From positions 1-64,000 of the IMG/VR virus record IMGVR_UViG_3300025449_000010: DNA of 64,000 nt; one strand, given 5' to 3'. The position numbers were made by a program, and so were the translations under genes. Shown here piece by piece: positions 66-64,000 of the stretch. Positions within the stretch are counted from its first letter, which is position 1. Every line of letters begins with the position of its first letter. The notes beneath the pieces are model-generated. The model ran no database searches. It had not been told where the DNA came from and saw only the letters and a list, made by a program, of their open reading frames with translations. This DNA is from a virus.

Positions 66-1286
66 ATGCTCACACTGCCACCAGATCAAGTCGTAGCCAA
101 CGCCTCCAACACCCCGCCCAGTCTGCCTGACATACTAAATGCCCAGACTGATGCCATGTCTGCTGCCCAATACAGCTACACACAGTCAGCCACTGTCTCA
201 CGTGTTGGAAGCACGCAGGTCATCAATCCAACTGACCCGGAGCTGCAGCTACAGTGGATTAAGTCTGTACAGGTGGTAGACCCCAGCGACTCCACCAGCA
301 TACTCTCACGTACCTTCCATGTCCTCCAGTTCGCCTACGACTACGCCATGTCCTGGAATCACAGTCCAGACCCAGCCTACCAGACTGACCTGCTCTACTG
401 TGTCACAGCTCACTTCAATGACAATGTCTACGCAGCAGGTGCACCTGACTTCATACGCTGGCAGCACCTGACACTCCCCTACAGCTACACCAAGCTCTAT
501 CAGAACAACAAGGTAGGCAGCACCAGCTTCATCGAGGCTCCCAAGTCCACAGGCACGGCTGACAGCACACCATCTGACACACCGCCTGGCAATCTGAGCT
601 CCACGCATGTAACTACCACCACCACCAGCTACATCTACGAGAGTCCAGCCTACATCGGCATCCTGATCTGCCGCGGTACCTATCCAGGTGCAATCATCAC
701 CTGCAACACAGATGCCCAGATATACCTGCTAGACAGTCCATCTGGCTATATCAACCCAGCCAGTACCGGAGCGGCGCCGCCCCCAGTGGGTACAATCACA
801 GCCTCCACTGGAGATAAGACCGTCATCACCAGTAGCCGTACCATCACCACTCCAGGTGCAACTGCCCTGTCTCCCACCACTATACAGCCCATCAGTCCAC
901 CTGCCGCGCCAGTGGTGGCTACCATAACTGCAACCCCCGTGGTTGCTGTAGTGACACCTGGAACCACAGGTACGCAGCCAACTGCCAGCGGTACTGCCGG
1001 ACCCATCCTCCTGACCAGCCCATATATCCTGATCTGGGCAGATGTCTGCCAGCTGGAGACAGCCCTGCAGGTCAGGGTGGACTGGTATGGTCAATTTCTC
1101 TTCACTGAGGTATCTGCCACAGGTGGTATTCCAGACAGGGAGATCATATCCTGGGGTGCCGCCACATCACTGACTGACAGACTGGTGCCACCCGGTAATG
1201 TACCTGTAGACACCGACTTCCCAGCAGCACCACATAGCACACCAGTCCAGTGGGGAGCCAATACTCCAGCAGCAGGAGTAGTCTGA
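66..1286 (+). CDS. Hypothetical protein, Thr/Ser/Pro-rich, probably virion structural
   Basis: 406-aa ORF whose ATG overlaps the TGA of an upstream frame (TGATG at 64-68); composition resembles the tail proteins elsewhere in the window; no family motif recognised. Confidence 0.7.
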   Translation: MLTLPPDQVVANASNTPPSLPDILNAQTDAMSAAQYSYTQSATVSRVGSTQVINPTDPELQLQWIKSVQVVDPSDSTSILSRTFHVLQFAYDYAMSWNHSPDPAYQTDLLYCVTAHFNDNVYAAGAPDFIRWQHLTLPYSYTKLYQNNKVGSTSFIEAPKSTGTADSTPSDTPPGNLSSTHVTTTTTSYIYESPAYIGILICRGTYPGAIITCNTDAQIYLLDSPSGYINPASTGAAPPPVGTITASTGDKTVITSSRTITTPGATALSPTTIQPISPPAAPVVATITATPVVAVVTPGTTGTQPTASGTAGPILLTSPYILIWADVCQLETALQVRVDWYGQFLFTEVSATGGIPDREIISWGAATSLTDRLVPPGNVPVDTDFPAAPHSTPVQWGANTPAAGVV

Positions 1287-1510
1287 TGCACCTATCTCTC
1301 CAGGAGGCAGACGATATACGGGGACTGAGACTAGCCCTGATAGCGCGCACCAGAGAAGGTGTTGACCTGGAATACTTAAGGCAAATACACCTGCTGAATG
1401 CAGCGCTGCAGAATATCCTGATCAACTCCCATTATCATGAAACACTACGCATCAATAGAGTCAGAGAGTCCAATAGAGATACCCCTGGAGGAATTCGCAG
1501 CGCTAAGTAG
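1286..1510 (+). CDS. Small hypothetical protein
   Basis: ATG at 1286 coupled to the previous stop (TGATG); overlaps the next ORF by 74 bp, so uncertain. Confidence 0.4.
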   Translation: MHLSLQEADDIRGLRLALIARTREGVDLEYLRQIHLLNAALQNILINSHYHETLRINRVRESNRDTPGGIRSAK

Positions 1511-1700
1511 TAGCTACATCGAGTGCCGCCCCAGCTTCTACACCGGCAACTACATAGGACTGGAGATAATCTCAGATGATGAGGCAGACACCTATGAGCT
1601 GATGGGAGCACTGGTTCAGCTACTGCTGCAGCAGGGTGTCAACTCCTTCTGTCTCAATTTCAATCCAGAACGCCCGCCTGCTGCCTGTAATCTAGTCTAG
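1437..1700 (+). CDS. Small acidic hypothetical protein
   Basis: 87-aa ORF with protein-like composition, convergent with 1697..1996. Confidence 0.5.
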   Translation: MKHYASIESESPIEIPLEEFAALSSSYIECRPSFYTGNYIGLEIISDDEADTYELMGALVQLLLQQGVNSFCLNFNPERPPAACNLV

Positions 1701-1996: not shown

Positions 1997-4900
1997 TCAA
2001 TCCCTGGGGTCCATCTGCATTATTATTCTCATTATAAATGGTTATATTCAGGTTCTCCATCTGCTGTTCTGAGTACATGGAGTTAAACTCACCATTACCA
2101 GTGGGTCCGCTCAGTATGCCAACTGCAATATCGCTGGCCTCTGAACGTATCAACTCAATATCCACATTAGCGACCTGCAGTGCTGATTGCTGGGCAGCTG
2201 CCTTAATCTCAGCGGCATCCTTATAGGCCTGAGTTACTACGTAGTTATTAAGTTCAGCGTCCTCAGTAATACCTGCCAGGGCATAGGCTGCCTTCTGAGC
2301 ACCACTGACCTGCAGTGCCACGCCCACTGCAATAGAGGTAATAATTCCAAACAGACTGCGAGCCTTAACATAGCCAGGCATATCTATCTCTGGACCTATA
2401 TTGAGGTGATTCATCATAACACCTGATAGACCTTCCTCCAGAAACTCACTGGCAGACTGAGTTACCCGACTGAACACATTATCCTCTCCCAGTCGTCTGT
2501 TTAACTTGGTAGTAAGCCTGGATAGATCCTCTGACATTCCCTGATGTCCCTGCATAGTGGCAGAAACTACAGCACCCCACATCATCATGCGAAACCTATC
2601 CTCATAGGCATGGATAAATGCCTGACCATAGCTCTCATCTGGATGATGATACATCTCATTGCGGATACTAATCATAGAGCCGCCCATTATAGCCATACCC
2701 ATAGAGCCCAGTGTCTTCAATGTAGTTCTGGTCTTACCGAGTTCAACTAACTGCGCTGCCCTATGTGATTCCAGTTGGAATACCATGTTAGAGAAGAAGG
2801 CACCGGCTGCCTCATTAATACCGTTATTACTATTCTGATTAGAGTTCGCCAGGGCGCCGCCCAGACCAACCAGCAGTGGATATATGAGGGAATCGTAGAT
2901 CTGTCCGGTACTCTCTATATGCATAGATGCCTGATGAATACTGACTATTTCGCCATTAAATCTCTTCTGATGCTCTATGCTTCGAACCCTATTGATATCG
3001 TATTCCTTACGTGCGAAGTACTCATTGTATAGGCGCTCCACATCTCTCTCAGATAAATCACCATTAAAATCAAATTCTCCTATAGTGGAATGTACAGCAA
3101 CATCTCGATTAGGATTTCTGGGATTTCTTCGTTTAATAGAGTCTATATAGACATCAAATACATTATTTATATGCTTAATGATGTTACCAAAAGCAGTAGT
3201 ATCTAATCCAGCCTTAATTGCTTCTGCATTACCTTCAGTCCTGAGAGCTTTATTACCTTCTGCAGTAAGTAAATCTATGAGATTTTCAAATGCCTTATAC
3301 TCACTCTTACCTGCTATTGACTTACTCATAGTACTGAGATAAGTCCTGAGCATCTGTTTCTTAACAGTTTCACTGTAGGCTTTAATATCTTCTTCGCTAT
3401 TATCTTCAGTTACATGTCCTGTAACAAGCTCCTTACTAGTACTTCCATCGTCATGCCTCACAGTACGTTCCCACTGTACATCTTTAATCATATTAAATAG
3501 GGACATAGATAGACTGCGATAAACTTCATTAGTACCGATACCTTCCTTACCATGGGCAGCTTTAGATATCCAGGCGCCTAGAAATGGAGCAGTATGGGCA
3601 TAGACTGGATCTGATAAATCTTTAGCAGCATATAGAGAAGAAGCCAGAGAAATTTCTGAATTATCTAATAGCTTTTCTCCTTCTCTGCCTATAAAGTTAT
3701 CAACATCTTTTCTTGATTTTCTATATATTTCAGTCAGTATAGTCAATCGATCTCTTTCCTTTCTAAGATATTCAGCATCGGCTTTTCTATTGTTTGTTTC
3801 AAGATCCTCTACATGTCTCTTAAATTCAGATTGACTGAGAATTATAGTTTCCAGGTTTTCTCTTCTCTTCTGGTTAGCTTCAGCATTGCTATTACCAGCA
3901 TCTTCGTCATCATACCAATGCTGTCTGAGATAATCCTGTAAATTACTGTTCTCAATGTTGTAAAGCTCGCTATTCCTACGCCGACTTTTTAAATCTAGTC
4001 TACCTTTTTCGACCTTATAAAATTTATGGAGTTCTTCATCCTTTTCTCGGGCAACCAAGTCTCCATGTTGATCATTAGATCTATCTTTTAAATGTGTTTC
4101 TGCCCTAGTATTGGCTATTAATGTATGTAATCTAGTACTAGCTACATATGCTAACATCTTATTAATGCTGGCATTACTGGTATCGCCAGGAGTCAGTGCA
4201 TTAATCAGAGCCTTACCGTTTTTTATATTTAAACCTCCCTCAGCATGACTACCTTCTAAAAATACCTTAAAGTTATTATCAATCTCATTTGTAGATGTAT
4301 CTATTACTTCTCCAGAAGTACCGCCATGTATTAACTCAGCAATGGTTCTAAATTGCTCTAAAATCATGAAGTTATCCTGCAGAGATTTACTGGGACCTAT
4401 CTTACCTGCCAACTCCTTTATTCTATTTTTTCTTTTTTCGTAGTTACGTTCTTCCTGAATAGATGATAATTCTTTAGATATCTCATCTATATTGCCAGTA
4501 GGTTTAATAAAATCGCGCAGGGACTGTGCAATAGTCTGATGCATACCCTGGATACTCTCGAAACGTCTATTCTCCTTATCTACAGTTCTTTTAAGATTAT
4601 CTACCTCAACTTGTGCTTCTCCTCTGGCAGTTTCCTCATTCATTAATGGTTTTTTAGCCATTATCTGTTCTTTCTTAATTTCTATAAGATCTTCATAGTT
4701 GTTATGAACTGCCTCACTCATAATACCGGTAGACATATGTCCGTATAGGGTTAAGCTAAAGAAATTAACAGCCTTACCGAGTATATTGGATGCCAGTTCT
4801 GCCTGAATCTGTAATGAACCCTCCAGGATATTAGTAGTTGTGGCGGCACCTACATTTAAATTATTAAATAACTTCTGAACACCCTCTAGTACTTCGCCCT

Positions 4901-7900
4901 TATTTTTAGAACTCCACAGATGCTGATAGAATTCAGAAAGTACTCCCGCAGCTGCTCTTCTCTCAGCCTCCTGATGCCCTACCTGGGGTTCTAGCTGATT
5001 ATAGAATCTCTGTGCAAGTAACTGCATATGAGATAGTTCCTGAGTTACATCTGCTGAACCTTCTAAGTGAATTAGATTTCTAAATTTTTCTCTTTTTTCC
5101 TGATCTAACATCTGCCTATTATAGAGAATGTCATATATGGAGTTATAACTTTCCTCTACATTAAACTTAGCCCATGCATTTCTAGACTCACTCAATGTAT
5201 AACCCTTGTCATGCATACTAAGCATAGAGGCTAAAGAAGGTCCAATAAATCTACTATCCATTTGACCTCTTTTAATGCCTTCTTCTATTAACTCTTCTTC
5301 TATTTTTTTACTAGTTATATTCCAGAGAATCCTATACTTCTTATTAGATATTTCATCTGCCCTATCTCCTACCTTAATACCTGTTAACTCCTGTTCAACT
5401 CTCCTATTAACTTCATTCATAAATGCTGTGTAACTATTATCCTGAGAAGAAGCAACAGTGCCAGTATAGCCAGCAAATACAAAGTCTCTACCATTTATTC
5501 CAGCCGTTACTCCAGCTGCTGCTTCGTTCCTTATCTCTAGTTCTGTCTTACCTATAACTGCTGTTTTATTTGTAGATAATTTCCTATACTCAGCTATATA
5601 TTGATTGCGTAATTTTTGATAGTGATAACTATCGTAGCCAGTTCCTATAGATTCATAATCTAAACCAACTAGGTCTGCAATAAATTGTCTGGTCTTCTTG
5701 AGGTGATAATTAGTGCTATATTGCTTCTGTAGATTTGCAATCTGAGATGATAATACTATCTTTTCCTTCTCAAGTTTTGCAACAGTCATATCAATATTTT
5801 TTCCATTCTGAGTGGTTCTACCCTGTTTTCTGAGTTCATTTAGAGAATCGATGGCTATATTGAGTTGAGATAAATTAGTCTGTAGATTAACTATGTTGGA
5901 TTCAATCATAATAACCATGTCACCATCATAGTCACCTAAGTTCTGAATCATACGTCCAACAGTATTGACCATCAATAGACCCTTAGATCTATCTTCATTC
6001 ATCTTCATGAACTGTCTTTTAATTTCTGGACTGACATTAATACCCCTAGTAGCTAGATTAATAGCCGCCTTATTGTAGGTATGTATATCTATTATTTGAT
6101 GATGAAGATAGCTAATATTGAGACCACCTAAAGGCTGTGGACGGTATATCAGAGAACTCAGTGAATTAATTCGAGCCCTACTCTCCAGGTTGCCTAATCT
6201 AATTTCCCATTCAGCTAAATCATCAGGGTCATCAGTTATATTATTTAACTGTGTTCTTGTTATCGTTCCCTGGTTCAGTAAATTATACATATGGCTATTA
6301 ATATTTATTTTTGAAGAATTCCTAGATTTAATATCATTTTTTAATGTAGTTAATTCGCCAATAATATTTCTAAGCTCATCCCTGGGTCCATTACCATAGA
6401 CACCATTAGCGCCACTCATCATAATATTACTGGAAGCTCCAGCTTCAACATCTCTCAGTATTTCATTAAAACTATTGAGATAGGTATCTATACCCCGCAC
6501 CAATGCCTGACTAGAACTACCATATTCAGCCAATTCAGTGCGTCTACCCCCACTGACTTCTATTTTTTTACGTTTCTGCAGCTCTAAGGAACTCTGTCCT
6601 GTAACTGCGATACCTTCTGCTAACCAGGGATTAGAGGTCACCACTCTGGTCTGCCTTTCTAAGTTAAGAGTTATTCTGTTACTTGCAGCAATTTGTCCCT
6701 GTTCCTGTAGAGAATTTATACTACCACGGAGCAGGTCTTGAAATCTCTGTAGTCTCTCTATCATTCGTTTATCTATGGAAATATCAGTAATAATTCCAGT
6801 TTCACCGTTCCTCTTTCTCTCAGCCAGACTGCGATAAAAAGTCATAACATCGCTGTCTGGAGACAACATAGTATGTAACTCTATCTGATTAGAGATCATT
6901 TCAGCGGTAGTATCTCCCAACTTATGCATACCCAGTGATACCAGCGTATCAGATCCCAGTAATACCCCTCTGACTGTCTGATTGTAATCAACAGCGATAT
7001 ATCCAGTGCCGCCCGTACCTCTACTTGTTTCTAGAATAGCTGGTAATTCCAGTAACATATCTCTGGTATTACCGCTATTCTTAAGCCCCTGTTCTATAAA
7101 TTTTTCAGCATGATCAATAATATATAGACCCGATTTGATTCCGCGATCTTCAGTTTCCCTGAACATACTGCGCAGAGCAGTTTTATGATAGGTTTTCAGT
7201 ATCTTATATATAGCTTCTCGACTATAACCAGTGCTATGGGGACCCTGAGCATTCACAGGATTAACAGCACTGATAGTCTCTAGAAATTCTCTCAGAGTAA
7301 TATCTTCCCTAATAAACCTACCATCAGGACCAATTCTATTGGTCTGTCTTCCCACTTTAAGACTAATATCCAGGAAATTATTGCTATTGTTATTAGCGAA
7401 AGTCTCTAGCTGATTATACAGATTGATAAATTTATTATCAGCCATCATATCTCTGGCTTTATCGTTTACCGAAGCTCTACTATTATCCATATCAAAAAAG
7501 GCCATGGCTCTTCCCAGGAGCTGCATACCTGTCTTGGCTTCTTTAAATAACTCATCAGCTCTAGTCTGCTGTTGTTCTACCGTTGGTCTATCACTTGGAT
7601 TACGTCCATTTCTATTCCACTGATCTGATAGTTCATTATCGGCAGCATTAAGAGCATGCAGATAATAGCTACCTATCAATCTACTGCCATTATTGTATAG
7701 GTAAGTATCAATACCTGTAACTGCACTTCCAGCCACAGTACTATCTACTAAACCTACTACATCAAACAGGGTTCCCACATTCTCTTCAAATATCTGACCC
7801 CTGCCACTAAATGAATTCTTCAGTGCTGCAAAAAAGCGATTAGCAGCCTGTTTTCTATTATGAGCCTGTTTAATAAATTCACTGGCTCCAAGTAGGGACT

Positions 7901-10900
7901 TCTGCTGTATCTGAAATTCTATTTCTCCACTACTTCTACTACCTACAGCTACCTTAGATGCAGATGGAGAATGTCCCAGAAAAAGAGCAACTGTTCGCAT
8001 AGACATATCTAGTCCATAGAACATACTGGCTAGGTTATTTTTCCTAGTAGTATCTGTATCATTAACTATTTCATATATCTGAGATGAGGTTAATCCCAGA
8101 GATACTGCTGCCATTTCAAATGCATAATTTTCATAGTTAACAGGCATATTGTCAAACTGCTGTTGACTGCTAACTAACTGCATACCAACATGTAATCCGG
8201 CTACAAAAGATTCAGCAAACATATCTTGCATGCTGCCCGTACTCAGTGCCCTATCGTTTTCACCTGTTTTAGCGCTGCTAATTATTATCTTATTTAAAGT
8301 TTCGATAAATTTAGTCTGAGCGCCATTATCTCCTGCTAATACGGCTGCTAAATCTATACCTCCTCTGGCTTGATTGAATACTTCAAATAGGGGATTAGAA
8401 GTAATATTCAGCCTATTTAACTTATTAATACCGCCTCGAAGAAAGGATTCACTGTCTTGTCGGGATGCCACTCTAATATTTCTCAATATCTCTGGAGCAT
8501 CATCTATTTCCCCATTAATATCTGTAATATTCTCACCGTACCTATGCAATGCTTCAGATATTTTTTTCGCATATTCCTCAGATCTATCCTTATCGTTATC
8601 TTCGCCATAGCCAGTGAATGATTCTATACCAAAAGTCAACAGCATTGCGGCTGCAACTCTCTTAGCACCCAATGCCGATATACCTTCAGTAAGTTCAGCT
8701 ACGCCTTCTTCATGTCTAAGTAACTGGGCTCCATGTCCAGGCATATAGGCTTTAAAAGAAGTTATGTTAGCTATGCCATGTATTTGATGAGCCTGTATTC
8801 CTCTACTACCCTCTACTGCGCTTCTTAGAATACCAAAGCCATCTCTACTCTTACCTAGCCTGCCTTCTCTCTGACTTCTATTGTATTCTGAAGCCCTATA
8901 TTCAAATCCTTCTACATCAAACATCTGCACAACAGATTTAAATAGTCCAAAGTTGGCTTCCTGACGATCTCCAGATACCAGCAACGAAGATCTAATAGAA
9001 ACATTACGAACTACAGTTGCAGAATTAGAACTATCTCCAGATGTTCCTAGTCCTGTTTTGATTTCTATAGAATTGTTGTGATAGGATATACTGACCCTAG
9101 CTCCCAGCGTAGCTTCAGTAATACTACTAGATCCAGAGACAGCCTTATCCTTAATACCTTCGAGTAGTTTAATTAATTTATCACTACCGATACTAGAGCT
9201 ATTTCTATTTTGATCTGTAGATGCAGCCACGGCACTGGCAGCATTGTCAACAATACCTCTAACCTGCTGTGCACTGAGGGTATTTACTATATTACTTCCC
9301 TTCCTGACTAGGTATGCTTCACCTGTATGTGGATCTATAGAGACAATATCGCCAATTCCCAGGTTCAAGTTAGCCATACTAAAGTCATTCATCAGACCGT
9401 AGCTCTTAACCTTCCTATTCTGAATATTGATATTTCCATATCTAGTGGGTACTACTTCTTCCCCGCTATCTGTATTAATTTTCCTGCCAAATCCGGCATT
9501 AGCATAGTAAGTGGCATCATGCAGGTACCCGCCAAGCCTGAGTAACATAATAGGTTGATCTTCCCATCTGTAACCATCCCTATCAGTTATTATCGGAGCA
9601 CCAGTCATAGATGTACCGTCAAGCTGATCTCTAGTTACCGCCCATGCTCTGAGTAAATGCTTCTTCTGTTTATCATCAAATAAATCTCTATATTCATCTC
9701 CATTCAGTTTTGCCTTCATATTTTCATAAATTTTCAACTGAGAAGGAGCCATAAGGGAACGAATATCAGAATCAAACTGATAACCCATTGTCATCATATG
9801 TGGAAAGTAACCACCAAATAACAGAGCAGCTGTAGCTTCTCTTTCACTCGTTCGCCCATCATCGCCAAATAATTCAGTTCTAAAGTTTTTTCTAATATTT
9901 TCTATATAGTTATCAGCCCTGCTTCTATCTTTGGCATCAAAGCTATTAAGTAGGTTTATATAATGAGTATATTCCGCACTGAGTGCAACTTTAGATTTAG
10001 TGCCCATAGCATTACGTATCCTCTGAGCAAACTGAAACTGCTTATCTTTCTTACCAGTGCGAGTTATTAATAATCTATCTTTATTAACTAATGCTGTCTG
10101 ATTACTTGCTACGACCGAATTATAACTATTAATGGCTAAATTTTTCTGACTCTCTAAAAATTCATTTCCTAAATTAGCTACACCAGCGATGTCACTGTAA
10201 TAGTCACTCTCAGTAAATTGAGAGACATCATTACTATCCCTATCTCCATCTATTATGTATCCAATACCAATTGCCTCCAATGCTTCCCAATTGTTCAGTA
10301 GGGATAACTCCTGCATACGAGATCCAGTAGCAGTGGAATAGTATTCCATAGTAGTGTTAGTAATAGCAGAAGCCAGAGCATAAAATCCGGTGCCGCCATA
10401 CTTTGTAGGATCAAATATCATCGGACTCAAGACAGAGGACATACTGTATAGATTGGAAATCCCTACTTCAGCTGAGCCTCTACTTCTCTCTAAAAAGGAT
10501 TTATTAGCATCGTTATATTCGCTACGAGAAATAGTATAGTGAGCCTGAGAATTAGTTCCTAATCCTAATTCAGCAAATGGAATTGTATTAATTGAAACAT
10601 GCTGATTAATCATTTCATTAACATCAACTCTATCGGATAGACCATGAGCCATCAGAGCAAATACATCAGATAGAACATGCCCCTTAGCTCTCTCTTCATT
10701 GGTATTTAATCCTAAAATTTTGCCCAGGGTATTACTGAAAGTGTCTAGATTAACAGAACCCCCAACAGTCTTAGGATTAAACTGATCTATTGTCAGATTA
10801 AATAGTTCTATAATACTATCAAGAGACTCTCTTCTGGTGCTTCCATAGTTAGCATTAAGTCCTCTGGTCAGTTCTACTGTATTTTTGACAACATCATAGA

Positions 10901-13900
10901 GATCTGTCATATGAGGATTCCTAGAAGCTCTTAATCTCTCTCTAACTGATATGACATTTGTCCTTGCTTCTTCAAAAGTTTTGTAATAACCCTTCTCAAC
11001 CCATTTTCTAGCATATTCATCTACATATCTATCCTCATTTACTCTACTAGGTAAGGCACTATTATCCAGAGCCTGAGTCATTTTACCGCCATACTCGGTT
11101 AACAGTATAAGAGTATTTCTAGCCTCGAGTAGAAATTTTTTAACATCCTGGTTTTTAATTTCTACTGCATCTTGAGCTTTTTTACTGGGATCTATAAAAT
11201 CTGCAATCATATCCAGTGCAGCATCATGATCTTTAAAATTCTTATGAACCCAAAATACTCCAGGATTCCTACTATCTATATTTGTATCTACTATTTCTTC
11301 TCTGTTTTTAATAAGATGCATTTCAGATCCAGTCTTCGATGACTTAACCTGAACACCATAGGTTTTACCTTGATAATCATAAATTACATCTATCTTGCTG
11401 TTGACATCGCCTTTCGTATTTTCATCTAATTTTCTTACATTACTAATAACCTTACTAAATCTAGGATCCTGAAGATATTCTACAAACCTATTGACAGCAT
11501 TATCGCCTCCACTGGAATTGTAATTTGTACCAGCATCTTCAGAGAGATAACTTTTATGACTAGTTACCTCAACTGGCTTACCATATGCTCCAGCTAACCC
11601 ATTATCGAGAACTTTACCTTTGATAGGGGTGTCATCAGCTCCAATTAGATTTTTATGGAATCCAAGAGTAGCCTCTAATCTATTTTCTAATTTTCCTCTC
11701 TCAATAGGACTAGAAGAACCCATACCCAGATTAGAAAGAAAATTAACTGTCAAGTCTCTGATAAACCTACTTCTCTCAGAGATGTCATCCATACTATTGA
11801 CATTATTAATGTACTGAGCAGGACTAGCTATTGATTTCCTATAGTTGTATTCCAACACATTACCTAAAATAGCCATAACACCGGTCTGAGCACTGTTGAG
11901 ATACAGTTCATTACCCATACCTGATTTAACAGCACCGAAAGGTGTAGCAAAATTACCAGCATCCTTACTAGCTATTACGCTACCTCTATAGACTCTACTC
12001 TCGTTAGTTAATACTATGGTGCCTTCTAGATTAGTATTTTCAGTGGCATTAGATCTTGCCTCAGTTGAAGAATTTAAAATTGTGTAACTTAAATTCTTAT
12101 TGCCTATTTTGACACTAAAGCTATCTGTACCACCAGACTCCAGAGAACTATTAAGACTAAGCTCTACTCCACCTAAATTATTAAAAGTGTAACTTGTCCT
12201 ATCCTTATTCACCTTCATGTTGTAAGGATTTACAGCAGGACTATACCCCTCTGAACCATATTTTCCATATTCATGAAATGCTTTTTCATATTCTGCCAGT
12301 CTATCCTCCATAGTGGCTCTATGTCCTAATGCCTCAGATACCCTATTGAAGAGTTCTATATCTGTAACACTGCTTCTCTTTAACTGTTCAATTAATATAT
12401 TAAAAGCAGTTTTAACACTCTCGGTATTTCTAATTTGCTTCAATATATCGCCCTTCATATTCTGAGGCTGATCTATTGCTCCCATGAAACTGCGTGGAAC
12501 ACTTTCTTCCTGAAAAAACCTATCTCTCTGCTCCTGTCCCCAGCCCAGAGCTTCACTGAAACCTCTACTTACGAGATTATGTAGGGACTGACTATGTACC
12601 TTAGCAACTTCAGGTAACATATCTCGGTTGCCTAAGACATTGTAGCCAGCATTTGCTGGATTAAATCTAGAAGCATAGTCTGGATTAAGTGAAACCTCAT
12701 TGAGCTCTAAAGATAGTTTCTGTTTATACTCCATGTAGGCTTCATGGCTATTAAAATCAGATTCAGTCAATAACTCCATAGAAAAGGGAGTAAAGTTGCT
12801 TGAACCTATATTACTGGCAATAGTAACTATGTTATTGTTATTATCATATTCATACAGGGAATATGCCTTGGCATGTTGTCTGGGAACTGAGGCTTCCTGC
12901 ACATTTCCACTAGATATAGCCAGCAGAGTTCTTAGGGTATCTCTAACATGTTGTGTAGAATTTAAACCCGTTTCTTCGTATTTGGCTATAGAACCCTGAC
13001 CAAATATATGTTCATACACTTCAAATCCAGCTCGATGAGAGACACCTCCCTCCATAATGCTAGTTAATATATCTTCAGCATATGTACTTGTAGAAGCGTA
13101 TTTCTGTTTAATCATACGCATGTAACCCAGCAAGTTGCCGTTATATTCCTGATTAACCTTACTATCAGGAGCAGAATTCATCTTACTTATAAGGGGATTG
13201 AGTACCTGTTCAGCAAAATTTCGGATATCTACTGCAACAGTTAATCTTCCCTCAATTAAACTGTTAAGAGTTTTTTCCTGTAACCTGGCGTATCTCTGAG
13301 CCAGGTCATTATCTTTCAGGTATCTCTGCATATTCTGATCGTATAGACCAAATTCACTGGTAAAGGCGCCGCCTTCTCTATCTCTAAGTAGACTAGTGCC
13401 CTGTAATAGTAAAGTCTGGTCTAACATCATAATCATGCGGGCAGACTCATTTACACTTTTTTTAAATTTATTATTAGCAGAATCTACTCCATAGGTATAG
13501 TCAGATAGATAGCTCAAAGCACTATCTAAATGTTCATAGACTCCTCGCATATCGGTTGTTTCTTTACCGCTATCAATATCTTTATCAGCAGCAGTGCGTA
13601 GATTATTAAAATTGTCTCTAACCTCATCGCGATCAGCTGAGTAACCAGTAAAATCGCTCTTAGCAATCTTACGTCTCTGCGTATAGAGAATATTCTCCAT
13701 TTCCATAGCACTTCTCTTAGTTTCTGCTAACTTAGATAGTCCAGGATCTCCGTTATACTCATCTTCAATATCTTCAATAGTTTTATTTATTTCATGTTCA
13801 GTACGAAACCTGGCAATAGATACTAGCTCAAAGTTACTGCCAGATAATTCAAAATCCCTACCTACTGGCTCAGTTAGGTTCATTGACCCCAGTATAGATA

Positions 13901-21372: not shown

Positions 21373-21385
21373 AGGTCTATAACAC

Positions 21386-30912: not shown

Positions 30913-31106
30913 TGTTCTTCTGCCAGCCCAAGGTAGATAAGCTCTCAGGACTGGGGAAGATACTGGGCTGGTCTATCAGTGAGGAACGCTATCACAGTGC
31001 TGCTGGTATCAAGCTGTTCTAGGAACTAGCTGCTGAGCAGGGTAGATTGACAGATAGTCAGATACTCCTGTTGGTTAAGACTGCATACAAATAGCTCAAT
31101 ATAATA

Positions 31107-42790: not shown

Positions 42791-42804
42791 CGTTAATATC
42801 CCAT

Positions 42805-43531: not shown

Positions 43532-43532
43532 T

Positions 43533-47277: not shown

Positions 47278-47834
47278 CCACCCAGATATTCAGTCCACAG
47301 TCTGATACCCTCAAGGTACTCTCCTTCATACAGAAGGTCAGTCCCAGTATGTACTGGGGGATAGGTGGATTCAACCAACAACCACCAGCCAATCTAAGTC
47401 TCAGTGCCGCCCCCACCAGCGACATGGTATTCCTGCCTGCCTATGAGATACTACCTGCAGCACGCATAGACAGCACAGATCCCTGGTCATCCAGTCAGAA
47501 ACAGCAAGCCCAGACAACGCTAGACAATAGTTGGTATCTCTATAGAGGCATTACTGATACTGACTACCCATATCACTCCAGAGTTAGTCCCAACCTGACC
47601 GCCCCCCTGGTGGCTACTAATACCTACGTTTCAGTTAAGATATCGCCGAATCAACTCCCAGGTGCATTCTCCATCCTGGCACTATTCAGTCATGTGGTAC
47701 TGGGTAGCGCTGTCACTGGAACTAATCCACCCTATAGTGCGGCTAATGTGGTAGACACTGGACTACTGCACTGGATAGGTAGCTATAACAGCACTAGCAT
47801 AACCAATACCACCTACTATCAGCTCTTTCTCTAA
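47274..47834 (+). CDS. Putative baseplate wedge protein (T4 gp8-like)
   Basis: MYWGIG N-terminal strand and YVSVKI...FSILALF; precedes the DUF4815-like gene as in many myoviruses. Confidence 0.5.
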   Translation: MTTQIFSPQSDTLKVLSFIQKVSPSMYWGIGGFNQQPPANLSLSAAPTSDMVFLPAYEILPAARIDSTDPWSSSQKQQAQTTLDNSWYLYRGITDTDYPYHSRVSPNLTAPLVATNTYVSVKISPNQLPGAFSILALFSHVVLGSAVTGTNPPYSAANVVDTGLLHWIGSYNSTSITNTTYYQLFL

Positions 47835-47835
47835 T

Positions 47836-57927: not shown

Positions 57928-60099
57928 ATGGCAGATGCCACTAATTCTCAGGTTGCGCCTGGTGCTGCTTTAAATATAATTTGGAGTTCAGTTCTAACTG
58001 GTGTACCTATGTATGGTACAAGTTCTGGCGGTAGCTACACTTCAACAAATCAAACACTAACTTTAAATACATCAACCACTCCACAAACGGTAAATCCACC
58101 AACCAGTGTAGTTAAGAATCAACCAGGCATTACTTTTAAATATGGAACTAATACGTGGTATATGGTTCTTCAACCTGCAATGGATCCTGTACTGCCAATG
58201 CAGGGATCTAGGGGCGCTCCCGGTGCCGCCGCAGGTGGAATAGTAGTTAAGGCTAAACCACTAATAGCCCGTCATGTGATACCAGGCTTTGGACCAATAA
58301 TTCAGCATCTAGGTGTCTATAGCACTATAGTTTCCTTCGTAGGAGCATTCGTGGGTTATGAAGGAACTAACCAGAATAATATATCAGAATTCTATACCTA
58401 TCCATCCAGTGTTAATTGGCAATCTAATTCTAATTTAAGCTCAGCTATAGTAGTAGATAGTTATGGAGCTTTTACTACATTCTGGAATGGAGTAGTTAAA
58501 AGCGGTTATCAACTTCAAGTAACTATCGCAACTAACACTATACTGAATGGCAGCAGTTTTAAAGAAAATAGTCTAAGAGATTCAACTGGACAACCTAACT
58601 TTATTGGATACATTTCTAAAATGGAAGCTATGTATGTCAGAGATGACTTAACATGGTACAACATAGACATAGAAGTAGTTGATCAACCTAATGCTATTCC
58701 CGTGCAGTTGCCTGCCTGTAAAAACAGTAGCATTAGTAGTAATGATGTAAACAACGTTTCTAATAGTATTTGTTCTACTGATCCTAGCTTAGGAGAAAAA
58801 GCTCTAAGATGCTATTTAGATCAATGTAAAGCAGTAAAATTAGCAACATTAGCTTCCGATTTAGTAGTAGATGGAGATCCAAAATCACCATATCAAAAGG
58901 CAGTATATAGTGTTTTTTTAATACTAGATACGAGTAAACGAACATTGCCTAAACCTAATAGCGGTAGATTTGGCGGCTCTATTGTTAATTCTATATGGTT
59001 AAGAAATGTTGGAGATGGTTCAATATACACTAGCGATTCTATTGATATTGCTTATATAAAATCCTTATTTGTTAATGTATTAGATGATGATATGACTAAT
59101 TTAATTAACTATAGAAACAATGAAAATAGAATTATATTAACATATGAAAATAGTTCAATAAAAATTAACTTTGACTTTACATATTTAAATCAACAAACAA
59201 GTGGTATTAATTCAAGCGGTAATCTTACTATTTCAAATAGTTATGAAATGACTACAAGTATTTTTAATAATAATTTTATTAATATAAACATTGACAATAA
59301 TTTTTACAATTTTACTAGTTATTTAACATATACTAGTTATAATTATTTAAAACTGGTTAGTTCAGACGCTCAACTACTTGGATTATCTTCTTGTGTCATA
59401 AATAACTCAGACATAAAATTGTTAAATCAAGGCTTACCTGTAGACTCAAAAACAAGTGCAAACCCGACTACTACAGCTTTAAACCCAAATACATGTCCTG
59501 ATGCATTAAAAAACAGCGGCTACTGTACAGCTGTATTTGCAGGTTCATATACATTTTATGTAGCTGGTTCTTGCAGTGCCACAGGACGTATATATGATTC
59601 ATCTGGAAATATAGTATCTTTAAGAGGCAATTTAAGTCCTACAAGTAATGTAGATCCTTTAAATTATTCTAAAAATCAAGCTGAAAATTTCTCATCAGCA
59701 ATTCTTGGCGGTTTTGTTTCTGCTTTAGGTAGAGCAGTATCTGGTTCTTCTAATGAATTTTTAATAGCTAATTATTTTCAAATTAAAAGTGACAATAATG
59801 ATCTTAATAGTTATCCTGGTCTTCAAGTCTTAGCACTTTTTGATGCAAAATCCTCTGATCCAGGAAAAATACAAGCTCATCCATATATTGTAGTTACAGG
59901 AAATAACCCTGGTAAATTTTACGATGGCTATGGTATAGGTGCGACAACTATCTACAATGTTTTAGTCTATACCGACGGTAAAGGTCAGTATTATAAGTAT
60001 AAATCAGATAGCAATAATAATATTACTCTAGACACAGGTCAGGCTTATCAATTTAAAACAGATCCTAACTCTGGACAAACAGGATTGTATCAAATTTAA
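57928..60099 (+). CDS. Virion protein with tail-tube-initiator/GpU-like N-terminal domain
   Basis: IARHVIPGFGPIIQHLG....VSFVGAF and GYISKME...WYNIDIEV resemble tube-initiator folds; AT/Asn-rich central part. Confidence 0.5.
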   Translation: MADATNSQVAPGAALNIIWSSVLTGVPMYGTSSGGSYTSTNQTLTLNTSTTPQTVNPPTSVVKNQPGITFKYGTNTWYMVLQPAMDPVLPMQGSRGAPGAAAGGIVVKAKPLIARHVIPGFGPIIQHLGVYSTIVSFVGAFVGYEGTNQNNISEFYTYPSSVNWQSNSNLSSAIVVDSYGAFTTFWNGVVKSGYQLQVTIATNTILNGSSFKENSLRDSTGQPNFIGYISKMEAMYVRDDLTWYNIDIEVVDQPNAIPVQLPACKNSSISSNDVNNVSNSICSTDPSLGEKALRCYLDQCKAVKLATLASDLVVDGDPKSPYQKAVYSVFLILDTSKRTLPKPNSGRFGGSIVNSIWLRNVGDGSIYTSDSIDIAYIKSLFVNVLDDDMTNLINYRNNENRIILTYENSSIKINFDFTYLNQQTSGINSSGNLTISNSYEMTTSIFNNNFININIDNNFYNFTSYLTYTSYNYLKLVSSDAQLLGLSSCVINNSDIKLLNQGLPVDSKTSANPTTTALNPNTCPDALKNSGYCTAVFAGSYTFYVAGSCSATGRIYDSSGNIVSLRGNLSPTSNVDPLNYSKNQAENFSSAILGGFVSALGRAVSGSSNEFLIANYFQIKSDNNDLNSYPGLQVLALFDAKSSDPGKIQAHPYIVVTGNNPGKFYDGYGIGATTIYNVLVYTDGKGQYYKYKSDSNNNITLDTGQAYQFKTDPNSGQTGLYQI

Positions 60100-60104
60100 T
60101 ATCT

Positions 60105-60437
60105 ATGCGTACTGACTATCCCGTATCTGAAACTACCCTATTAGCTCTCAACTATCCACCCAGTGAGCCTATACATGCTCTGATGTTATCTAATGGCTAT
60201 CTGTGGGCAGATACTACCATACCTGCAGTGAGTATTATCTATATCCTCAATAATGGAACACCTGTCAGCACATCTATAACTGGAATTCAGTTTACATCCA
60301 CACAGTCTATTACATCGGGCGGCACCGTGACTACACAACAGCTTGTCCTACAACCACAGGGCATAACGCTGTCTATTAGTAATATAACGTACCTGCTCCT
60401 GCCCAATGGTCTCAGCTACAGCTCAGCAGCTTCTTAG
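60105..60437 (+). CDS. Hypothetical protein
   Basis: 110-aa ORF in operon. Confidence 0.55.
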   Translation: MRTDYPVSETTLLALNYPPSEPIHALMLSNGYLWADTTIPAVSIIYILNNGTPVSTSITGIQFTSTQSITSGGTVTTQQLVLQPQGITLSISNITYLLLPNGLSYSSAAS

Positions 60438-61425
60438 CCAAGTACAATCCCTAGTTACACCCCTATCTGCATTAACAGTGGATAGTAATGCCAGTGCCCA
60501 GGCGCAGGTAACTCAGAATCAAGACTATCCAAATCGTCCATATAATCCACCCCTATCCTTCCTCTACACCGATACACTGTCAACATTACTGGCTGAAATC
60601 AGTAATAACAACTACATATATGCTGGTCAGATAACCAGACCAGGGACACTGTTAATGCCTGCCCGTACCGCCTACGAGCCGCATCATGTATTTGTCAGTA
60701 GAACTGGATCCTATGCCTACAGGTTCATCTACATACCCCTGAGATTGTTGGCCAACGGCCCTCAGATACTCTCAATTCCAACATGGACATATGACGGTTC
60801 CAGCATCTCTACAGGTACATCCTACAATACTGGCACTATGTTTGCTTCAGATGCCAGTAGCTGGCCGGTTACACATGGTATCTATTGTCAGGACTACTAT
60901 CACCCGCTGGTATTCGGTCTACATTTCACTGGCAATGCTGTAGATATTGCAGGCGGCACTCCGCTCTGGGAATATCAGGACAGACTAGGCTGGCTAGGTG
61001 ACAGGGGTACCCTCTATCTGGATATATATCAACCGCTTGGTATGCGTTTCCCCCTGGGTATACCGATAGGCGGTCAACTGCAGCCAGATCCATCCTACAA
61101 CAGCGGCGAGCTGTACCTACCCAGTAGCGGCTCATATGATTTAATTGGCTACTATAGGGGATACATGACCAATGATACCTATAGTCAGACCACCTACTAT
61201 CTCTACCAGTATCCCGGTGGAGTGTTTCTGAGCAGTGCCGTCCCAATTCCCATACAGATAAATACGGTATGGAATCAGTCTCACACCATATGGAATACAT
61301 CTCAGTGGCAGTGGGGTAATAACACCTATAACCCCCTGTCCAGCGTAATCAGCAGTCTGAGTGGCAGTGAGGCATCTGCTATTACCAGACAATCTGTAAT
61401 TCAAACATGGACGGAGGTGCGCTGA
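60406..61425 (+). CDS. Hypothetical virion-type protein
   Basis: 339-aa Tyr/Gly-rich ORF in operon. Confidence 0.6.
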   Translation: MVSATAQQLLSQVQSLVTPLSALTVDSNASAQAQVTQNQDYPNRPYNPPLSFLYTDTLSTLLAEISNNNYIYAGQITRPGTLLMPARTAYEPHHVFVSRTGSYAYRFIYIPLRLLANGPQILSIPTWTYDGSSISTGTSYNTGTMFASDASSWPVTHGIYCQDYYHPLVFGLHFTGNAVDIAGGTPLWEYQDRLGWLGDRGTLYLDIYQPLGMRFPLGIPIGGQLQPDPSYNSGELYLPSSGSYDLIGYYRGYMTNDTYSQTTYYLYQYPGGVFLSSAVPIPIQINTVWNQSHTIWNTSQWQWGNNTYNPLSSVISSLSGSEASAITRQSVIQTWTEVR

Positions 61426-62129
61426 TGGGAATACTATCCAGTAATTATCAACTGATAGAGATGTATGTAGGTGGCAGCACTGCGCTACAGAACAAGGTAC
61501 CAGACAGCGTCATCATGGAGCTGACCAGGAGACCGCAGGAACAGACCGTTATAGTTAATGCAGCTGCCTATGTCTTCAGTCTGACCTCCCCCTACGGCTA
61601 CGATCCACATATACTCTCAGGCAATATCTATGCTGTCTATAATCAGGCAGGGAGAATGCTCTATCAGGTGGCTGGTCATAACGGCATCTGGGGACGTAAT
61701 GCACTGGACGCTCAGTTGGTATTCGGTAGCCAGCCCTGGGAATACTATTTCGTCAATGCAGGAGGGGGTATTGTATATGGAATACTTCGAGGAGAAGATC
61801 CCATACCCTTGGGCAGCAGTGGGGACACATCAACCTCTCTCAGTAGTGGCAACGGCTGCACCCTGATACTCAGCGGCAGTGGCACAGTCTACGTTCTAGC
61901 TAAGGGTACACGTACCAGCAGCATCTCAGCTGCCATCGTCATGGCACAGGGTAAATCTACTGTCATTACCGGTGCCGCCCCAGTATCAGTGATCATCTCC
62001 AGTGATAGCTGGATATATCTACAGAATGCATCAGGTACGCCCAGTACTGCGATTCTGCCTGGTGATAAGGTAGCCAGTGGGCTATATTTCACCAGAGCCA
62101 GCTCGCCAGATACTGCCATTACCGTTTAA
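61425..62129 (+). CDS. Hypothetical virion-type protein
   Basis: TGATG-coupled start at 61425 (ORF track starts at 61407). Confidence 0.6.
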   Translation: MGILSSNYQLIEMYVGGSTALQNKVPDSVIMELTRRPQEQTVIVNAAAYVFSLTSPYGYDPHILSGNIYAVYNQAGRMLYQVAGHNGIWGRNALDAQLVFGSQPWEYYFVNAGGGIVYGILRGEDPIPLGSSGDTSTSLSSGNGCTLILSGSGTVYVLAKGTRTSSISAAIVMAQGKSTVITGAAPVSVIISSDSWIYLQNASGTPSTAILPGDKVASGLYFTRASSPDTAITV

Positions 62130-62132
62130 TAT

Positions 62133-64000
62133 ATGCAGAAGCAGATAGATATCTCCTCAGGCTTCATGTCACAGTTACTGAAGCTATATCAGAGCGGCAG
62201 TCCTCTCAGTATTGTAGAATTCGTTGAGCAGGTGCTACTGAATGGACAGGTCAATCTATTCCTGGGTCAGAAGATAGTCCTCAAGAGTTTCTACGGTGAA
62301 GAACTCAGCCCAGAGGAGCAGGATACCCTGATTCGCTGGAGGGAGAATGAACAGCGCACCACATGGATACCGGGTAGACAATACAGCAATCTGATTCTGG
62401 AGAGTGGTAGACGCTGTGTGGTGGGGAGTACCATGCTGGCAACTCCCAGCGGACTGCAGCGCATAGATTCCCTGGCATCTGAGACAGGAGCACATATAGA
62501 GACTGTATCTGCCAGGGGCGGCACCGCTGAAATGGTCTACTACTATAATCAGGGCAGACAGAAGACCTACAGACTGGTCACCTCATCTGGACGTACCCTA
62601 CAGGGTACGCCTAATCACCCAGTCATGGTTCAGAGAGATGGCATGTACCTATGGGTACCGCTGAGTGATGTAATTACCAGTGATCAGATATTGATATCCC
62701 GCAGCCACTGCCTGGGCAACGGTGCCGCCTACACCTACTATGAGAATCAACTATGGTCAGACAGTATCTGGAACTACAGCCATGAGAACATCTGCCGTCA
62801 TCTCAGTCGTCAGATAACAGCCAGTCAGAGTGGTGACATCAACAATATCAGAAGCCATAGCTACGAATATATACGCAGACATCAGATACTGGCAACTGCT
62901 GTGGGAATACCCTCCAGCATCATAACCTCCAGGAAGGGGCATCCCCTGACAGACGGTACCTGGATACTCCGCATGGATCCGAAGTGGCGGGCACGGGTAC
63001 TGAATAAGCGAGGCAGCGGACTGGATGAATGGGTAGAACAGGTATCCAGTGTCACCTATGCAGGCTACGAGAATGTCTACGATATCCATGTACCTGGCGA
63101 TCATGCCTTCTGGGGAGATGGTTTCATCAATCACAACAGCGGTAAGAGCATGCTGGTCAGTGCAGTAGTTCTCTATGAGTTCTATAATCTGATTACACTG
63201 AACTCACCTGCCAAGCACTACGGTCTGGTACCCTCAGATCCCATACATATATTCGTAATTGCCCAGTCAGCAGAACAGGTCAAGGAAACCCTCTTCGCTA
63301 AGATAATAGGCTATGCCAGTGAGAGTATGCTCTTCCAGTCCCTGGCTAAGAGCGGCGAGATAGAGATGCTGGCAACTGAAATTCGCTGTCCCGGGAAGAA
63401 TGTGGCTATCTCAGCTAAGCATAGCCGCTCACAGTCCCTGGTCGGCTATAACCTCAAGCTCTTCGTACTGGATGAGGCATCACGGTTCGAGACCAATGAA
63501 CTGGGTGTCAATACAGCAGATACCCTCTTCGATAACGTGGGTAAGGCAGTCAGCACCTTCGGTAAACATGGCAAGAGAGTCATGATCTCCAGTGCCTGGT
63601 GTGAGGGCGACCCCATCCAGCGTGCCTATGACCACTGTCACAGGGATCCCTACAGTCTGGGAATGAGACTGACCACATGGCATCTCAATCACAGCCCCAA
63701 TGTAGCCAGAGATAGTCCACAGATAGTGTCAGACTACCTGAAGAACGAACAACTAGCCCGACTGGAATATGAGGGCATCCGCCCCAGTGCCAGCGGTGGT
63801 ATGTTCACCACGGATATGATTGACAGCTGCACCACTGGACATTCCATGGTAGATACTGCAGCCACTGACCTGGATGTCAGGGGACCTGAGGAGACCAGGA
63901 GGTACGTGGGAATTAATATACTGAGATGTGAACCCAGTCAGGGACCTGGCTATGGGCACATAGACTATGGACTCAAGCGAGACAACTGCGCCTTCGCCTT
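62133..64000 (+). CDS. terL: Terminase large subunit (intein-containing), truncated by the window edge
   Basis: My translation from ATG 62133: LFLGQKIVLK, LILESGRR^SGKS split Walker A, IAQSAEQV, LVGYNLKLFVLDEASRF Walker B, MISSA, EY and GHIDYG nuclease start; missing from the ORF track, presumably because it runs off the window end. Confidence 0.9.
   Translation, partial: MQKQIDISSGFMSQLLKLYQSGSPLSIVEFVEQVLLNGQVNLFLGQKIVLKSFYGEELSPEEQDTLIRWRENEQRTTWIPGRQYSNLILESGRRCVVGSTMLATPSGLQRIDSLASETGAHIETVSARGGTAEMVYYYNQGRQKTYRLVTSSGRTLQGTPNHPVMVQRDGMYLWVPLSDVITSDQILISRSHCLGNGAAYTYYENQLWSDSIWNYSHENICRHLSRQITASQSGDINNIRSHSYEYIRRHQILATAVGIPSSIITSRKGHPLTDGTWILRMDPKWRARVLNKRGSGLDEWVEQVSSVTYAGYENVYDIHVPGDHAFWGDGFINHNSGKSMLVSAVVLYEFYNLITLNSPAKHYGLVPSDPIHIFVIAQSAEQVKETLFAKIIGYASESMLFQSLAKSGEIEMLATEIRCPGKNVAISAKHSRSQSLVGYNLKLFVLDEASRFETNELGVNTADTLFDNVGKAVSTFGKHGKRVMISSAWCEGDPIQRAYDHCHRDPYSLGMRLTTWHLNHSPNVARDSPQIVSDYLKNEQLARLEYEGIRPSASGGMFTTDMIDSCTTGHSMVDTAATDLDVRGPEETRRYVGINILRCEPSQGPGYGHIDYGLKRDNCAFA
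62415..63137 (+). mobile_element. Intein (241 aa) in the terminase Walker A motif, homing endonuclease degenerate
   Basis: Begins CVVGSTML; block B GTPNHPV; ends VYDIHVPGDHAFWGDGFINHN followed by +1 Ser; no intact LAGLIDADG motif. Confidence 0.93.

Follow-up and report, generated by a model that had tools for sequence, protein, structure and literature searches.

A sharply defined, asymmetric GC-rich octamer iterated about once per kilobase on a freshwater viral contig with plasmid replication genes

To our knowledge, iterated DNA words such as highly iterated palindrome 1 (HIP1) have lacked an agreed function for three decades. Uptake signals, namely the uptake signal sequences (USS) and DNA uptake sequences (DUS), are asymmetric words of 9-12 bp present about once per kb on both strands, and in Haemophilus proteomes they lie where relatives carry other residues. 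In the phage-plasmid N15, centromere sites are scattered among the phage genes, and several Chi sequences contain GCGG. The accessible part of Elhai 2015 (PMC4390886) describes HIP1 and a set of alternate GC-rich HIPs (GGCGCC, rCCGGy, GCsGC, GGGATCCC and TCGATCGA) at densities of ~500-2500 per Mb. According to the same part of that paper, the alternate HIPs are found where HIP1 is low and replace it, each HIP has a matching methyltransferase, a methylation-dependent repair ratchet is proposed as the source, and the HIP sequences described are all palindromes (PMC4390886). Selection on HIP1 was argued by Xu et al. 2018 (PMC5861425), a paper whose accessible part also mentions the USS of Pasteurellaceae and the DUS of Neisseriaceae. 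A third kind of system is KorB of the TrfA plasmid RK2, which the portion available of a recent report (PMC11790492) describes as a ParB-family sliding clamp that silences genes from operators up to more than 1 kb off promoters; its operator, OB, is a 16-bp palindrome centred on GCGGC. Here we analyze an asymmetric octamer, GYGCCGCC, in the first 64,000 bases (the window) of a single 72,067-bp viral contig, IMG/VR record IMGVR_UViG_3300025449_000010, a phage-plasmid by its gene content.

An exact search of the window detected 59 copies of the octamer, 36 on the plus and 23 on the minus strand (Table 1). Dinucleotide-preserving shuffles lead one to expect 0.91 copies (standard deviation 0.98, largest count 4), and none of 100 shuffles reached 59. 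An earlier reading made from the letters of the window alone (the sequence-only reading) had claimed massive over-representation, with at least 57 copies at an assumed GC content of ~45%. The claim holds. The GC content of the contig is 44.1%, close to that assumption, and the 33 coordinates that had been listed (21 plus, 12 minus) were all recovered on the expected strand. The first copy in the window lies at 774 and the last at 62722-62729, in agreement with the range given earlier. The whole contig has 63 copies (39 on the plus and 24 on the minus strand), 44 of them spelled GTGCCGCC and 19 GCGCCGCC, a density of ~875 per Mb or about one per kb.

The word has sharp edges. At its first position the counts are 44 for G and 0, 0 and 0 for the other three bases; the second position is T (44) or C (19), and the remaining positions are near-invariant. 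Exact copies (63) outnumber all one-off variants taken together (~48, the self-overlapping GCGGCGCC being left out), the most frequent of which, GTGCTGCC (9) and GTGCCACC (6), are products of CpG decay. Information extends slightly into the flanks, with C at -2 in 39 of 63 copies, G at +1 in 3 of 63, and a purine at -1 in 61 of 63, in agreement with the earlier remark that the octamer is usually preceded by a purine. The full word is approximately cRGYGCCGCCh and holds ~18 bits over 10-11 contiguous asymmetric positions: the octamer is not self-complementary, and what these flank positions add is asymmetric too. Inverted copies overlap at three loci (37141, 37467 and 50422) to form palindromes of 12-14 bp, and 57 of the 63 copies are single asymmetric sites. 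The spacing of copies is near-random (coefficient of variation 0.89), and regular spacing was rejected on this ground.

The flanks also bear on a mobile-element origin, in which each copy would be the footprint or the core of some small mobile or repetitive unit (a miniature inverted-repeat transposable element, a GC cluster or the remnant of a homing site, for example). The GC islands that copies form in AT-rich genes look insertion-like at first sight, but conservation does not reach beyond -2 to +1 (other flank positions from -10 to +18 carry at most 0.22 bits each), the copies lie in frame within uninterrupted open reading frames (ORFs), and searches of the contig for tRNA and transposase genes found none. 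We rejected this explanation, to which we attach next to no probability.

Shorter units do not account for the signal. The contig has 125 GCSGC sites, 63 within the octamer and 62 outside it, against 41.5 expected for all such sites under a first-order model. The pentamer was rejected as the enriched unit, and the earlier idea that a GCCGC core marks a methyltransferase site is weakened accordingly. GGCGCC occurs 15 times, 13 of these coinciding with the word. HIP1 (GCGATCGC) has no copy in the contig, as the sequence-only reading had reported for the window, and CGATCG has one site against 3.1 expected. Every copy of the octamer contains one to three CpGs, although the observed-to-expected ratio (O/E) of CpG across the contig is 0.47. 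Because CpG is so strongly depleted, a word with this composition must be actively kept. Literature matches to the four spellings of the word were all unrelated (primers, human promoters, Kozak context), and we found no description of it as an iterated word.

Most copies are genic (60 against 3 intergenic in our own ORF set), 34 in the sense and 26 in the antisense orientation. Twenty-six genic copies read Gly/Ser/Arg/Cys-Ala-Ala in sense, 23 read Gly-Gly-Thr/Ala in antisense, 7 read Ala/Val-Pro-Pro and 4 are read otherwise; the readings named earlier (GAA, SAA, GGT, VPP, APP, LAAP) were all observed. Such a concentration, with 49 of 60 copies in just two frames (G/S-A-A and G-G-T/A), is what one would see if the excess were a by-product of protein composition and of codon or codon-pair usage, the peptides Gly-Ala-Ala and Gly-Gly-Thr being frequent and their codons favoured. 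The excess is indeed partly peptide-level: shuffling the codon order gives 3.1 copies, against 7.8-9.4 when the proteins are held fixed. We compared the observed copies with coding nulls for 45 ORFs, using 300 shuffles each. Against the 34 sense and 26 antisense copies present, permutation of codons within genes gave 1.7 and 1.45, and a synonymous-codon shuffle with the protein fixed gave 4.9 (maximum 11) and 3.0 (maximum 8), respectively. When protein, codon usage and dinucleotides were all fixed, the mean was 9.4 and the maximum 17, against 60 observed, and the excess is therefore not due to coding. A control for codon and peptide usage was the test that the sequence-only reading had named beforehand, and its claim survives it.

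The spelling of the tripeptides is likewise at odds with a coding by-product. GCC accounts for just 30% of the codons used for Ala, and GGC for 24% of those used for Gly, yet 17 of the 22 Gly-Ala-Ala tripeptides are spelled GG[T/C]-GCC-GCC; motif codons are used in 7 of 23 SAA and 7 of 11 GGA tripeptides, and 16 of 27 Gly-Gly-Thr tripeptides are spelled GGC-GGC-AC[C/T]. The same DNA word encodes two unrelated peptides, G/S-A-A in sense and G-G-T/A in antisense, from opposite strands. The 23 antisense copies of this kind have the base at -1 on a third codon position where changes are synonymous, and this base is a purine every time (23 of 23, P ~8e-5). Copies stand as GC islands in genes whose GC content at third codon positions is 0.18-0.30, and three copies are intergenic. 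The excess is seen in AT-rich genes (8 copies against 0.57) and in GC-rich genes (52 against 7.2), and this like enrichment fits one uniform process. We therefore rejected the coding explanation as very improbable. The octamer is a DNA-level word, and the signal is real and strong.

Alignments of the portal, scaffold-like, sheath and adjacent proteins with 36 related loci (30-55% identity) show mostly other residues or gaps opposite the motif tripeptides. Of the 11 sites covered by two or more relatives, 10 differ, and the site at 17230 alone is conserved. The word thus shapes the proteins, as the sequence-only reading had proposed.

The genes of the contig indicate what kind of element carries the word. 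Matches to PHROGs and Pfam identify virion genes for a portal, head protease, major head protein and tail sheath, and further ones for baseplate proteins, an amidase, a peptidase and a large terminase with an intein. Capsid proteins of relatives of the Microcystis phage Ma-LMM01 and of a Microcoleus phage share 44% identity with that of the contig, and copies in assemblies of Elainella and Calothrix and in a metagenome-assembled genome (MAG) share 51-54%; the same capsid protein is found on contigs of 83 kb and 134 kb. Genes for a TrfA protein (Pfam E 5e-17) and a ParA-type ATPase (AAA_31, E 3e-27) lie beside an iteron field within the cluster of virion genes, which identifies the element as a phage-plasmid, myovirus-like and distantly akin to the Microcystis and Microcoleus phages. 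Its capsid relatives in cyanophages and cyanobacterial assemblies (44-54% identity) suggest a cyanobacterial host. Scans of the 45 ORFs against Pfam and PHROGs detected no DNA polymerase, methyltransferase, Vsr or recombinase. The element is present in 15 freshwater or lake sequencing runs from 15 studies, four of which are possibly the source sample, and strain contigs in three runs are 1.5-2.4% divergent. Of 638 variable places in 31001-51000, the 40 listed all lie within 31108-34303; none falls in the four octamers there, where 0.4 would be expected, so that this comparison is uninformative.

Relatives of the phage are nearly free of the octamer, which occurs at most twice in each of the 36 related loci; a profile scan of IMG/VR had given 32 loci at 31-53% identity, and the iterated word is missing from all of these. 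A capsid-protein scan of IMG/VR found no close relatives, a scan of Joint Genome Institute metagenomes returned only a 100% identical 10-kb contig, and no viral relatives of the last ORF of the contig were found. TrfA homologues were found in one Thermosynechococcaceae MAG at 43% identity and in an Armatimonadota MAG. Two relatives carry HIP1. One, a contig of 19.7 kb (L001), has 10 HIP1 sites and belongs to a MAG with 7,949 HIP1 sites in 7.2 Mb; the other, a viral record of 136 kb (G404, the IMG/VR record of locus L007), has 19 HIP1 sites against 0 for a control. This suggests that the iterated word of a host can be mirrored in this phage family.

The sequence-only reading had suggested that a search for the word might identify the host. 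We counted the 9-mer GGTGCCGCC in 401 genomes drawn evenly across the cyanobacterial phylum and the 10-mer CGGTGCCGCC in 401 genomes of one large cyanobacterial order, 290 of them new, which gives 691 distinct genomes overall; GTGCCGCC was counted in the five best genomes. The host was not recovered among the 691, and the octamer, lacking in the 36 loci as well, therefore looks lineage-specific. The 10-mer occurs 16 times in the 72 kb of the phage (0.22 per kb), about 9 times the density in the best genome. A scan of IMG/VR with the 14-base doublet returned at least 118 loci, mostly GC-rich with a median GC content of 67%, and none of the matches listed presents the same phenomenon as this phage.

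The explanation that we prefer, at a probability of roughly 40%, is that a host imposed the word, which would belong with the HIPs or the uptake signals and would have been gained during plasmid life in a host outside our sample. Under this explanation the word would be a site of 9-10 bp read on duplex DNA by a sequence-specific protein, and it would be written into coding sequence wherever small residues are tolerated (Gly/Ser-Ala-Ala, Gly-Gly-Thr/Ala). Its source would be the cell lineage and not the phage, and the reader would be host-encoded. The phage-plasmid would replicate with host machinery through TrfA, iterons and ParA; with no polymerase, methylase or repair gene of its own and with long residence in the cell, it would be exposed to whatever host process creates or favours the word. 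A biased repair linked to methylation, such as the one put forward for HIPs, may be that process, or else a drive biased by uptake or recombination, as for uptake signals. Purifying selection may then keep the copies against the strong genome-wide decay of CpG.

The comparison with HIPs yields likenesses and differences. The word is short and GC-rich, its ~875 copies per Mb fall inside the HIP range of 500-2500 per Mb, its genic copies fall in several frames, and HIP1 is lacking, as it is in genomes that use an alternate HIP. It contains GCCGC and often GGCGCC, both alternate-HIP words, and relatives of this phage carry HIP1. The earlier proposal of an asymmetric HIP1 analogue is thus borne out in its statistics (density, GC-richness and lack of HIP1). 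No matching methyltransferase was detected among the 45 ORFs of the element by Pfam or PHROGs. The word further departs from the HIP class in residing on a phage-plasmid, with 0 of 691 sampled cellular genomes at comparable density, and in that its pentamer and hexamer sub-words are scarcely enriched outside the octamer.

The comparison with uptake signals is closer in several respects. Like them, the word is asymmetric, present about once per kb and on both strands in near-equal numbers; it lies mainly within genes, in frames that tolerate it and in protein regions with little conservation; the number of exact copies is close to that of all one-mismatch copies; and inverted pairs occur now and then. 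Unlike those of uptake signals, the inverted pairs here overlap into 12-14-bp palindromes and do not form terminator hairpins. In length, asymmetry, strand balance, near-random spacing and tolerant placement, the word seems to resemble uptake signals more closely than HIPs.

Several observations weigh against a host-imposed word. It is asymmetric over ~10 contiguous positions, unlike the HIPs described in PMC4390886, and we know of no uptake specificity or uptake signal described in cyanobacteria. None of the 691 sampled cyanobacterial genomes has a comparable density: the best one has 213 10-mers in 8.5 Mb (0.025 per kb, control 31), and GTGCCGCC in that genome reaches only ~2 times its control. 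Moreover, both HIP1 precedents show a lower density of sites per kb in the phage than in its host. Causes beyond the explanations considered here hold a share of the probability that should be reckoned with.

The main rival explanation places the reader on the element itself, the word being a dispersed binding or loading site of a phage-plasmid protein; a phage-protein site was also among the alternatives of the sequence-only reading. The candidates would be a partition protein of the ParB, KorB or SopB type that doubles as a silencer of virion genes in plasmid life, or a packaging or condensation protein. The lack of the word in the related loci and in the sampled genomes fits such a reader, and so does its distribution on the contig: it is missing from the replicon module (53990-57661, 3.7 kb) and dense in the virion modules. 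This module is AT-rich, and CpG is not depleted around the iterons. Distant silencing by KorB from an operator with a GCGGC centre (PMC11790492, as far as its accessible part goes) offers a precedent from a TrfA plasmid; since KorB loads at such operators and slides to silence, a dispersed loading site is conceivable. Further likenesses to KorB and OB of RK2 are the dispersal of the sites over a TrfA/ParA replicon and, possibly, a candidate protein encoded next to parA whose predicted fold may resemble ParB DNA-binding domains. The dispersed centromeres of N15 point in the same direction.

The candidate is a protein of 306 aa encoded divergently from parA. It has 804 homologues at E <=0.001 and belongs to no named family. 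Its predicted model (mean predicted local distance difference test score 81) includes a helical domain that aligns to the DNA-binding domains of ParB, Spo0J, SopB and KorB (Z 7.8, 7.7, 6.4 and 6.3; root-mean-square deviation 3.2-5.9 over 100-126 residues), at Z values below the reliability level of the tool for helical folds. The top structural matches of the model are instead the alpha domains of the Rubisco accumulation factor Raf1 (Z 9.9 and 9.4). Pfam assigned neither the protein nor any of 25 homologues to a ParB family, a PDB sequence search gave no match, and Foldseek of the model against PDB returned nothing at E <=0.001. Directly downstream of the gene lie two 25-nt direct repeats (57647-57671 and 57731-57755), 72% identical, 84 bp apart and with one copy of the word each, an arrangement that speaks for such a reader; the two copies may, however, belong to a 138-aa ORF (57509-57925). 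This predicted protein is the only candidate for an element-encoded reader that we found, and we regard it as a lead.

The sites themselves do not resemble those of the ParB type, which are palindromic and few per replicon, as OB is on RK2. Here, 63 mostly single asymmetric sites lie largely inside ORFs, with doublets at three loci, and they show no clustering at promoters or gene starts and a random-like spacing. On balance, a reader encoded by the element is unlikely, though it is the strongest of the alternatives. A bolder version of this explanation would have the element encode a ParB/KorB-like clamp loader that silences the virion genes through at least 60 intragenic sites during plasmid life.

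The orientation of copies bears on a further alternative, named in the sequence-only reading as well: a Chi-like signal for the RecBCD or AddAB enzymes of the host, which might reduce degradation of phage DNA ends, promote recombination and limit the acquisition of CRISPR or Argonaute guides. The word is asymmetric, GC-rich and 8-10 bp long, as Chi sites are at octamer scale, its G-rich strand (GGCGGC...) contains GCGG, it could protect phage DNA ends, and we detected no Gam-like or recombinase gene on the element. A mild strand excess (39:24) is also present. Polarity of the Chi kind is nevertheless not evident: plus and minus copies are interleaved along the contig without a switch point, the excess reaches only p = 0.077, and it tracks the C-rich composition of the plus strand. 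Octameric Chi sites are usually much sparser than the ~0.9 per kb and ~65-fold excess seen here, and a Chi word should be shared by the host genome, whereas none of the 691 genomes carries it. A Chi-like role is improbable, and we return to the host-imposed word as the preferred explanation.

Table 1. Copies of the word, from an exact GYGCCGCC match search of the window, and features of the replicon region. Positions refer to the window unless marked otherwise.
Feature	Position	Strand	Remarks
GCGCCGCC copy	774..781	+	
GTGCCGCC copy	1156..1163	+	
GTGCCGCC copy	1523..1530	+	
GCGCCGCC copy	2854..2861	+	antisense in AT-rich giant ORF
GTGCCGCC copy	4842..4849	-	isolated GC island in AT-rich giant ORF
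GTGCCGCC copy	7006..7013	+	giant ORF
GTGCCGCC copy	10390..10397	+	giant ORF
GCGCCGCC copy	13366..13373	+	giant ORF
GTGCCGCC copy	16500..16507	-	portal gene
GCGCCGCC copy	17230..17237	-	portal gene; sole tested site with residues kept in relatives (GGA/GGT/GGS)
GCGCCGCC copy	17580..17587	-	
GTGCCGCC copy	17669..17676	+	intergenic, directly past portal gene stop
GTGCCGCC copy	20261..20268	+	
GCGCCGCC copy	21287..21294	+	
GTGCCGCC copy	24380..24387	+	
GTGCCGCC copy	25765..25772	+	
GTGCCGCC copy	26977..26984	+	read GAA; gaps or other residues in relatives
GCGCCGCC copy	27498..27505	-	sheath gene, read GGA; SDF/SEF in relatives
GTGCCGCC copy	28533..28540	-	sheath gene
GTGCCGCC copy	31246..31253	+	
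GCGCCGCC copy	33404..33411	-	
GTGCCGCC copy	33917..33924	-	
GTGCCGCC copy	34083..34090	+	
GTGCCGCC copy	35270..35277	+	
GTGCCGCC copy	35405..35412	+	
GTGCCGCC copy	36027..36034	+	
GCGCCGCC copy	36492..36499	+	
Palindromic doublet GGCGGCGCCGCC	37141..37152	.	overlapping inverted copies 37141 (-) and 37145 (+)
Palindromic doublet	37467..37478	.	overlapping inverted copies 37467 (-) and 37471 (+)
GTGCCGCC copy	38061..38068	+	
GTGCCGCC copy	39215..39222	-	
GTGCCGCC copy	39270..39277	+	
GTGCCGCC copy	39536..39543	-	
GTGCCGCC copy	40181..40188	-	
GTGCCGCC copy	41424..41431	+	
GTGCCGCC copy	42935..42942	+	
GTGCCGCC copy	44530..44537	+	
GTGCCGCC copy	45104..45111	-	
GCGCCGCC copy	46426..46433	+	
GTGCCGCC copy	47404..47411	+	
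GTGCCGCC copy	48785..48792	+	
GTGCCGCC copy	48878..48885	+	
GTGCCGCC copy	49354..49361	-	
Palindromic doublet	50422..50433	.	overlapping inverted copies 50422 (-) and 50426 (+)
GTGCCGCC copy	52134..52141	-	
GTGCCGCC copy	52821..52828	-	
GTGCCGCC copy	53017..53024	+	
GTGCCGCC copy	53983..53990	+	final one ahead of 3.7-kb motif-free replicon module
GTGCCGCC copy	57661..57668	-	within first of two 25-nt direct repeats
GCGCCGCC copy	57745..57752	-	within second of two 25-nt direct repeats
GTGCCGCC copy	58223..58230	+	
GTGCCGCC copy	60318..60325	-	
GTGCCGCC copy	60952..60959	-	
GTGCCGCC copy	61972..61979	+	
GTGCCGCC copy	62517..62524	-	terminase gene
GTGCCGCC copy	62722..62729	+	terminase gene
Four further copies past the window	64852, 65416, 65458, 65773 (contig)	+, -, +, +	
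Plasmid replicon	54400..56634	-	0 copies of the word; iteron field ~54450-55110, trfA 55110-55883, parA 55873-56634
306-aa protein gene	56719..57639	+	divergent from parA; helical domain and KOW/SH3-like barrel in predicted model

Other features of the contig were observed alongside the word. In the origin-like iteron field (window 54450-55110), direct repeats of ~22 bp (CACAGCGTCGAAGGATTCTACT type) occur six times or more, alongside nine copies of a second repeat that includes TAATTTGTCAC; among the over-represented words of the contig, these rank second. CpG depletion (O/E 0.47) extends to nearly every gene. Some palindromes are avoided (GGCC O/E 0.29, CTAG O/E 0.52; AAGCTT 1 against 19.6 expected, GCTAGC 3 against 24, CCTAGG 3 against 25), and CTGCAG, TTTAAA and GGTACC are over-used 2-4 fold. 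Several large ORFs belong to no family. One is a giant minus-strand ORF at window 1962-15143 (4,393 aa, 38% GC), without a Pfam family and with five copies of the word; another, on the plus strand at contig 65955-72067 (at least 2,037 aa, 33% GC), runs past the contig end, has no Pfam family and contains no copy. The large terminase gene, from window 62133 to contig 64574, has an intein splicing domain (Pfam E 3.6e-10) with PHROG terminase matches flanking it on both sides. A gene for a ferritin-like protein lies antisense within the head module (window 18079-18714, minus strand), and one for a flavoprotein resembling Lys/Orn N-monooxygenases lies amid the baseplate genes (window 46315-47277, plus strand).

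Among the matches to the doublet, one locus (L103, record G697) with 11 doublet copies in 13 kb was considered as a similar case and rejected: its repeats are GGCGCC-centred palindromes, and the T variant is absent. This unrelated viral contig of 45% GC has 15 such GC-rich palindromes at a spacing of ~1 kb, apparently between short ORFs; several lie at ORF boundaries where ORFs of at least 120 aa exist, and all are limited to the last 12 kb of the 66.6-kb record. They could be a host flank or a regulatory repeat family. Record G701 was rejected as well, its over-used word being a different one, GGCGCGCC. Comparison of loci L103, L044, L066, L108 and L146 with this phage by blastn and tblastx gave no match, nor did tblastx with the whole G701 record.

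Asymmetry gives the word a direction, and a palindrome-specific methylase with a repair ratchet therefore cannot by itself explain it; fewer kinds of reader can thus be put forward. It is possible, though doubtful, that the octamer is the first HIP-class word without palindromic form or, what amounts to the same, the first word resembling an uptake signal in the cyanobacterial world: an asymmetric self-marker of ~10 bp, read by a sequence-specific DNA machine, that has reached saturating density on a phage-plasmid. The word is present on a small, abundant and self-contained replicon. As this replicon is found in 15 freshwater or lake runs with strains ~2% apart, selection and drive can be told apart by measurement in population data. 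The word also offers a cheap probe for the host, which may be sought among bins from the same lakes with at least 0.2 10-mers per kb. If the reader should prove to be encoded by the element, the word would amount to a novel means of controlling or marking an entire phage-plasmid genome.

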